Of a DNA stretch of 64,000 bases, positions 18,037 to 19,431 are shown in pieces; position 1 is the first letter of the stretch; the number at the start of each line of letters is the position of its first letter. Both the position numbers and the translations under genes were made by a program. The stretch comes from Escherichia coli (GTDB lineage Bacteria > Pseudomonadota > Gammaproteobacteria > Enterobacterales > Enterobacteriaceae). The DNA lies in the NCBI RefSeq assembly GCF_003334815.1, contig NZ_QOWO01000023.1. The stretch is one strand, 5' to 3'. A model generated the notes under the pieces. The model was not told where the DNA came from, made no database searches, and saw only the letters and a list, made by a program, of their open reading frames with translations.

Positions 18037-19431
18037 TTACGGTTCCCAGCGCAGTTCGTCGTTTGACAATGCATCGAACGGTTCGACAAGCGTTAGCGTG
18101 ATCTCATTGGAGGAGACACGCTGCCCCTGGTTATCTTCCACCACCACAGACAATCGCCAGTGATTGCTTGCCCCTTCCCCGTTCTGCCAGTCAGGCATGA
18201 TCAGCGTCCAGCCCTCCGCGCTGTTGGCTTGTGCGCCCGGCGTCAAACTTAATATCTGCGTATCGCCCTGCCAAATCAGTTGCCGAATACCGTAACGACT
18301 GCGGATTTGTAATTTCAGCGGCACTGTTTCGCCAGGTTTTAGATCCCACGGCGGTGTCGCCAGAAACACCGTTAACGTTTTTCGCTGTCGGTACTCAAGA
18401 GTCGGTAGATTATTTCGCTGCGGATTGTCATAGCGACTACCACGTAACGACTGACTTTCGGCAACCTCGCCCGCAGAAAGTTGTTTTTTGAGCGGTACAC
18501 CAAAGCGGTAATTAAGATTCAGCCCGAGGTTATTTTGATTTTCGCCACTTTCACCCTGTTTATGCTGGGCCGTCACAGTGACTAATGGCACAGGGGTGTA
18601 ATTTAATCCCAGACTCAACGCGACGGGATTGTGATAACCCGTACCAGAGTTAAACAAATCAACACGATCACCAAAATACTGTTCTAGGCTGACACTGGTA
18701 TTGAGGTGTTGATAGAACGGCATGCGCATCCGAGCTGTCAGGTCGTACCCGCGCGCCATCCGTTGTTCCTGCGTGGCTGTCTGTTCATGCCATGCAGCAA
18801 ACGGCTGATAAAAGTTTGCCGATAATCGCAAATATTCGCCCCACGCTTCGGCACCAAAGCCCGCTCGCTGAAGATTTTCGTCCAGCAAGTTGTCATAAAA
18901 AGTGTTATAACCCACCAGCCAGTTGCCGCGCGCCCAGCGTTGCCCAACGCCCACATTGCTCACCAACCCATTATCCTGCTGAGTAAGACCAAGCTGGCTC
19001 CAGGTGAGATAACGATCATTATCTTGTAACGGCACAAACCAGCTTCCACGACTGCCGGTGAAATGTCCTTCGTTATCCACTTTGACGTCAACACTGGCAT
19101 TTCCCCACGGTGATAGCCAGGACTCTACGTGCTGATTAACCTGTTGACTAAGCGCGTCGCGGACTTTTCCCAATGCGAAAGCTTTTGCCTGCTCGCCAGT
19201 ATCCAGCCCGTTATCATTCATACTGGTTTCGCCGAAATCTTTCACAATTTCAGCAAAGTGTTTTTCCCCATCATGATTTTCGGGAGCCATGCCTAAATCC
19301 GGCAGACCATCATTGTTATTATCAAAGGGATTTGCCGCTTTTTGCTCGAAGGTAGATTGTGCGTTAGCTGTACCGCCTGCTACAAGCAAGAGTAAATAAA
19401 ACGGGATAATGCGAGGAACGAAACGGCTCAA
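18037..19431 (-). CDS. ychO: invasin/intimin-family outer membrane protein YchO
   Basis: 464-aa ORF from TTG start with N-terminal signal peptide (MSRFVPRIIPFYLLLLVAGGTANA); internal ATG would give 417 aa lacking the signal peptide. Confidence 0.8.
   Translation of the reverse strand: MSRFVPRIIPFYLLLLVAGGTANAQSTFEQKAANPFDNNNDGLPDLGMAPENHDGEKHFAEIVKDFGETSMNDNGLDTGEQAKAFALGKVRDALSQQVNQHVESWLSPWGNASVDVKVDNEGHFTGSRGSWFVPLQDNDRYLTWSQLGLTQQDNGLVSNVGVGQRWARGNWLVGYNTFYDNLLDENLQRAGFGAEAWGEYLRLSANFYQPFAAWHEQTATQEQRMARGYDLTARMRMPFYQHLNTSVSLEQYFGDRVDLFNSGTGYHNPVALSLGLNYTPVPLVTVTAQHKQGESGENQNNLGLNLNYRFGVPLKKQLSAGEVAESQSLRGSRYDNPQRNNLPTLEYRQRKTLTVFLATPPWDLKPGETVPLKLQIRSRYGIRQLIWQGDTQILSLTPGAQANSAEGWTLIMPDWQNGEGASNHWRLSVVVEDNQGQRVSSNEITLTLVEPFDALSNDELRWEP

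Follow-up and report, generated by a model that had tools for sequence, protein, structure and literature searches.

The window, a 64,000-nt stretch of Escherichia coli DNA, contains the narX-narL / ychO / ychN / chaC region of this species. The locus DNA is 100% identical to that of many E. coli chromosomes and was found in 5421 of 5426 complete genomes. On the minus strand, a complete ychO coding sequence runs from TTG to TAA (18037..19431) and encodes 464 aa, and this is indeed the longest ychO frame, as the original prediction had it. An in-frame TAA lies upstream (19473-19471, minus strand), and no ATG, GTG, or TTG occurs between it and the TTG at 19431, so this TTG opens the longest frame. 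The initiation codon of the 464-aa form (codon 1, 19429..19431, minus strand) is thus the first possible start after the upstream stop and is also the start used by RefSeq and PGAP. The first internal ATG is codon 48 (19288..19290, minus strand), from which the 417-aa product described beforehand would be made; this is the legacy start of the gene. Before codon 48, the only other in-frame start is a TTG at codon 15, which lies within the hydrophobic core of the encoded N-terminus.

At the opposite end, ychO meets narL in convergent orientation (18034..18039). The narL coding sequence ends with its TGA at 18034-18036 (plus strand), the ychO TAA occupies 18039-18037 (minus strand), and the gap between them is zero, which bears out the earlier description of abutting stops. 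With no intergenic base, there is no space for a terminator between these genes, and the terminator-like hairpins near the junction are found only inside the two coding sequences. The ychO-narL pair is included in a published list of convergent transcriptional overlaps (PMC12288877).

The 464-aa TTG start is already the accepted annotation of ychO and was published in 2016. RefSeq places ychO of MG1655 at 1273784..1275178 (1395 nt; NP_415738.2, 464 aa), and PGAP calls the 464-aa TTG form (WP_000086217.1) in every strain checked, among them strains in which an ATG lies in frame upstream. In UniRef, the 464-aa sequence is itself the representative (YCHO_ECOLI), and exact copies of it were found on at least 1000 contigs; exact copies of the 417-aa sequence were found on 25, all from older records (e.g., BAA36088.1). 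The protein encoded in the window is therefore the same as the known YchO/YchP family invasin (NF007556, UniProt YCHO_ECOLI), with the same length (464 aa, 1,395 bp) and the same TTG start, and the only departures from YCHO_ECOLI are the legacy 417-aa records and 476-aa calls in some ENA/Logan assemblies. Pilatti et al. (2016) noted that a 141-bp signal-peptide segment is missing from some annotations and presented deletion-mutant evidence for a role in adhesion and invasion by APEC (PMC4787180). Goh et al. (2019) gave a length of 1,395 bp for iatA and failed to detect the IatA protein (PMC6714894); from the gene size and a prevalence of 99%, we infer that iatA is ychO. Our literature search found no experimental report that maps the initiation site or the mature N-terminus of ychO. 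In the TetRP paper (PMC4909307), which used a search range of only 60 nt, ychO/b1220 is absent from three supplements, and the text of the Ribo-RET preprint (10.1101/520783) does not mention ychO.

The 464-aa form begins with a putative signal peptide (codons 1-24, 19360..19431, minus strand), called on YchO by the classical n-, h-, and c-region criteria together with conservation. The peptide that the original prediction had proposed (MSRFVPRIIPFYLLLLVAGGTANA/QS) shows the expected three-part pattern in its sequence, with an n-region MSRFVPR, an h-region IIPFYLLLLVAGG, and a c-region TANA. The n-region carries R3 and R7 and has a net charge of +2 over the first eight residues. Residues 8-17 of the h-region (IIPFYLLLLV) average 2.83 on the Kyte-Doolittle hydropathy scale, more than any other 10-mer of the protein; outside the first 30 residues, the best 10-mer reaches 1.29. 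Small residues occupy positions -3 and -1 (A22-N23-A24, followed by Q25), and cleavage is accordingly predicted from the sequence after A24 (ANA/QS). YchO has no lipobox Cys, and the signal-peptide region of the E. coli protein contains no Cys at all. The 417-aa form starts with MAPENHDGEKHFAEIVKDFGE..., an acidic and non-hydrophobic N-terminus (net charge -6 over the first 30 residues, best 10-mer hydropathy 0.16), in agreement with the expectation that this form lacks an export signal.

Comparison with related species shows that the reading frame upstream of codon 48 is coding. We retrieved 80 orthologous loci from species-representative genomes of Enterobacteriaceae (81 sequences with the query; Salmonella is represented by the subspecies arizonae and diarizonae only) and counted variable sites by codon position in 21 ungapped sequences of Escherichia and Citrobacter. 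In codons 25-47, 10, 7, and 23 of 23 sites vary at positions 1, 2, and 3, respectively, and in codons 48-100 the corresponding counts are 18, 13, and 51 of 53; the two segments share one coding-type pattern of variation. The signal-peptide codons 4-24 vary freely (17, 15, and 18 of 21), which is the normal behaviour of a signal peptide. The 21 nt immediately upstream of the TTG are nearly saturated and show no periodicity (7, 6, and 5 of 7), and further upstream the alignment requires indels whose lengths are not divisible by three.

The segment of the mature protein encoded upstream of the internal ATG (codons 25-47, 19291..19359, minus strand) has, in addition to its third-position variation, a conserved motif, NPFDNNxDGLPDLG, at YchO residues 34-47 (window 19291-19332, minus strand). 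The motif is conserved across the Enterobacteriaceae, and four of its residues (P35, L43, P44, and G47) are invariant in 27 genus-level orthologs; all of them lie upstream of Met48. It is the best-conserved part of the mature N-terminal segment, which is presumably periplasmic. Its Asp/Asn-rich DxxxDGxPD pattern may resemble calcium-binding motifs of the thrombospondin type 3-like kind. In the Salmonella enterica subsp. arizonae and diarizonae orthologs (L024 and L073), the TTG is retained, but the six residues that would follow the predicted cleavage site are missing, and two residues of the NPFDNN part of the motif are also absent.

The internal ATG itself varies among the orthologs. In the 81 sequences, the codon-48 column contains ATG 57 times, TTG once, and a non-start codon 23 times (CTT, CTG, TTA, CTC, ATA, ATC, or ATT). 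An in-frame hydrophobic stretch upstream of codon 48 is present in every ortholog (9-mer hydropathy of at least 1.9) and is usually followed by a small-x-small pattern. Most of the 80 orthologs have Arg or Lys ahead of this core, and an A/S/G-x-A pattern recurs among them. The n/h/c arrangement is conserved in all 81 sequences despite the free divergence of the signal-peptide sequence itself.

Start codons of the orthologs were assigned with a heuristic that takes the nearest start codon before the hydrophobic core, which gave ATG in 40, TTG in 35, and GTG in 5 cases. A start precedes the hydrophobic stretch in all orthologs but one. The exception is L038, in which no start was identified by the heuristic; in L045, its nearest relative, an ATG occupies what seems to be the equivalent position. 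All 25 sequences checked from Escherichia, Citrobacter, and Salmonella have the TTG at the homologous position, and no other canonical start precedes the hydrophobic core in these three genera. The following AGC CGT is conserved in 18 of 21 aligned sequences. In most sampled Citrobacter, a stop codon interrupts the frame five codons before the TTG, so that no start other than the TTG precedes the hydrophobic core in these genomes. In other genera, a start, mostly ATG but also GTG, lies no more than a few codons from the homologous position, and some Enterobacter again have TTG alone (TTLKAVSS). Taken together, the comparative evidence places the start of translation upstream of codon 25 and before the hydrophobic core, and thereby rules out initiation solely at the ATG of codon 48; in E. 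coli K-12, the start required ahead of the core is the TTG at 19431. The comparison of 80 orthologs thus upholds the original preference for the longer TTG-initiated product over the 417-aa product without a signal.

Family membership points the same way. YchO matches the NCBIfam equivalog model for YchO/YchP family invasins (NF007556) over its full length with 802.4 bits (cut-off 508); the alignment pairs residues 5-454 of the protein with positions 3-452 of the 454 in the profile. The SinH model (NF033423) aligns residues 11-357 to profile positions 7-358. Both profiles, which align from residues 5 and 11, therefore include sequence upstream of Met48. The Pfam inverse-autotransporter β-barrel domain (PF11924) covers residues 64-341 (E = 1.5e-102), and a sequence search of the PDB matched residues 108-348 to the barrels of invasin (4e1t, E = 1.5e-47) and intimin (4e1s, E = 6.7e-41). 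The barrel ends at about residue 348 and is followed by residues 350-464, so that it lies N-terminal to the passenger, opposite to the arrangement in classical autotransporters. An AlphaFold2 model computed from an alignment of 27 sequences is of low confidence (mean pLDDT 53.8) and tentatively suggests an N-terminal helix, two further helices, a run of strands, and a β-rich C-terminal part. The C-terminal part of YchO has been modelled as FN3/Ig-like (PMC6714894).

The barrel of YchO is homologous to those of invasin (Yersinia, 4e1t) and intimin (EPEC/EHEC, 4e1s), which are type Ve inverse autotransporters, and all three proteins share the order of N-terminal signal peptide, barrel, and C-terminal passenger. 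YchO differs from invasin and intimin in that it has no LysM domain, no chain of Big/Ig repeats, and no C-type lectin cap, and its passenger comprises only about 115 residues (PMC4787180, PMC6714894). The presumably periplasmic segment ahead of the barrel is short in YchO, with the conserved NPFDNNxDGLPDLG motif as a feature of its own. Homology between YchO and SinH/IatB (NF033423) takes in the N-terminal region upstream of Met48; YchO, however, scores 243 bits with this model, far below the SinH cut-off of 999, and SinH is about 730 aa long with a longer passenger. Among E. coli YchO variants (P0001, P0004, and P0008), we also observed a protein of 556 aa in which about 80 internal residues are duplicated in tandem, and proteins of 427 and 405 aa that lack internal parts of the barrel region; these are probably inactive alleles or assembly artefacts.

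The translation signals are weak throughout. A Shine-Dalgarno-like GGAAG (19442..19446, minus strand) lies 11 nt upstream of the TTG, and its duplex with the anti-Shine-Dalgarno sequence has an energy of -4.1 kcal/mol, which 26% of random 22-mers from the window reach. Citrobacter have a purine-rich GAAG or AAGAAG at this position. All candidate starts of ychO are weak in Shine-Dalgarno pairing (-4.1 to +0.7 kcal/mol), and since 26% of random 22-mers reach -4.0 kcal/mol, this pairing cannot discriminate between the starts. The conservation of TTG across Escherichia, Citrobacter, and Salmonella hints, as a minor point, at selection for weak translation of YchO. Upstream of the TTG, a promoter scan returned a single sigma-70-like site (19641-19613, minus strand), as many as chance alone would yield. 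Inside ychN (window 19847-19863, minus strand), an exact match to the sigma-54 binding motif (TCGGTACAGGTTTTGCA) is directed towards ychO. This match is the intragenic site IA11, reported at 405 nt from ychO (PMC4591121), a distance that fits the TTG start if transcription is assumed to begin about 11 nt downstream of the motif.

Given this evidence, initiation at the internal ATG (19290) alone, with the preceding 47 codons as untranslated leader and a 417-aa product lacking a signal peptide, is scarcely credible. ATG is the commonest start codon, the 417-aa form was annotated first and still stands in records such as BAA36088.1, and the weak Shine-Dalgarno sequence at the TTG counts for this reading. 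Yet the supposed leader evolves as coding sequence in codons 25-47 and encodes an invariant motif, 23 of 81 sequences have a non-start codon in place of the ATG, and the alignments with the family profiles begin before residue 48. The resulting N-terminus would moreover be acidic (charge -6) with a best hydropathy of 0.16, although an outer-membrane β-barrel protein needs an export signal to reach its membrane (type V secretion; PMC6714894). Use of both starts, with the TTG giving exported YchO and the ATG of codon 48 a minor cytoplasmic isoform, has precedents in the internal starts that remove signal sequences from the products of speA, bamA, ivy, and yghG (Ribo-RET preprint 10.1101/520783), and the ATG is present in 57 of 81 sequences. 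This retention, however, can be explained by the protein alone, because Met48 is part of the conserved LPDLGM motif and Leu or Ile replace it freely. The ATG also lacks a notable Shine-Dalgarno sequence (-3.3 kcal/mol), and a barrel domain stuck in the cytoplasm has no obvious function; we consider a dual start very improbable.

A different possibility arises upstream of the TTG, where an ATG at 19466 opens a 12-codon uORF (MVFHYYRKLPTF*; 19428..19466, minus strand) that is out of frame with ychO in the K-12 allele and includes a polymorphic T-run. The TGA of the uORF overlaps the TTG of ychO by two bases. Alleles of the T-run between this ATG and the TTG are TTATT in K-12, T5 in some E. coli, and T6 in others; T6 brings the ATG into frame with ychO and creates a 476-aa ORF. 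T6 occurs in O157:H7 and BL21-derived genomes, among others. In an even-step sample of 60 complete E. coli genome records, about 18 (approximately 30%) have T6, and queries with exact T6 alleles returned 103 and 309 records, which is a lower bound. The ATG at 19466 could thus contribute to ychO expression, through a 476-aa precursor in T6 strains and through termination at the uORF and reinitiation at the TTG in K-12-type strains, a reading that we regard as unlikely. In its favour, the ATG sits 35 nt upstream of the TTG and the stop and start are joined as TTGA, T6 places this ATG in frame in about 18 of the 60 genomes sampled and in at least 412 exact-allele records, gene callers behind ENA/Logan records selected the 476-aa form (P0002), and two orthologous loci have a uORF of the same length, with a GTG start in one (L004) and an ATG start in the other (L005).

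Conservation argues against such a contribution. The uORF or its ATG is missing in E. whittamii, Escherichia sp. E1V33, and nearly all Citrobacter and Salmonella, and the frame between the ATG and the TTG varies within E. coli. A frame-shifting indel is tolerated at this site while ychO remains intact in 5421 of 5426 genomes, which, together with the absence of the uORF from most relatives, argues that the ATG at 19466 is not the conserved start. The 476-aa form would also have a poorer signal peptide (n-region charge of -1 over the first eight residues and 0 over the first 30), the ATG is preceded only by an AAGG two nucleotides upstream (-3.7 kcal/mol), and PGAP places the start at the TTG in T6 strains too. 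We rejected uORF coupling as a conserved mechanism, given that the uORF is missing from most Escherichia, Citrobacter, and Salmonella relatives. In T6 strains, the in-frame ATG could be used beside or in place of the TTG. That T5/TTATT and T6 set a lineage-specific level or export of YchO, by ATG initiation or by coupling of termination and reinitiation, is rather improbable.

The reading we favour, with a probability of roughly 0.93, is that translation of ychO starts at the TTG (19431) and yields an exported 464-aa precursor, and that the 417-aa form is mis-annotated. Residues 1-24 would act as a Sec-type signal peptide that mediates passage through the inner membrane and is removed by signal peptidase I, and the predicted cut after Ala24 would yield a mature N-terminus QSTFEQK. 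Mature YchO would then consist of a short periplasmic segment (residue 25 to about residue 63) with the NPFDNNxDGLPDLG motif, a 12-stranded inverse-autotransporter β-barrel, and a short C-terminal passenger, as expected for a protein of the type Ve secretion class. We infer the actual use of the TTG, the Sec targeting, the cleavage site, and this topology from the ORF anatomy, the coding conservation upstream of the ATG, the conservation of the TTG and the signal pattern, and the family membership described above. The 417-aa, ATG-initiated form would be an old mis-annotation, and a low level of ychO expression would be consistent with the weakness of both its start codon and its Shine-Dalgarno sequence.

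The practical value of this result is limited to annotation hygiene, as it concerns legacy 417-aa GenBank records and automatic 476-aa calls in metagenome and short-read assemblies. For cloning, deleting, or modelling ychO, we advise use of the 464-aa TTG form, bearing in mind that O157- and BL21-type strains have a further ATG in frame upstream of it. If the T-run does affect translation of ychO, E. coli would have a minor and hitherto undescribed means of translational control over an adhesin of its core genome.
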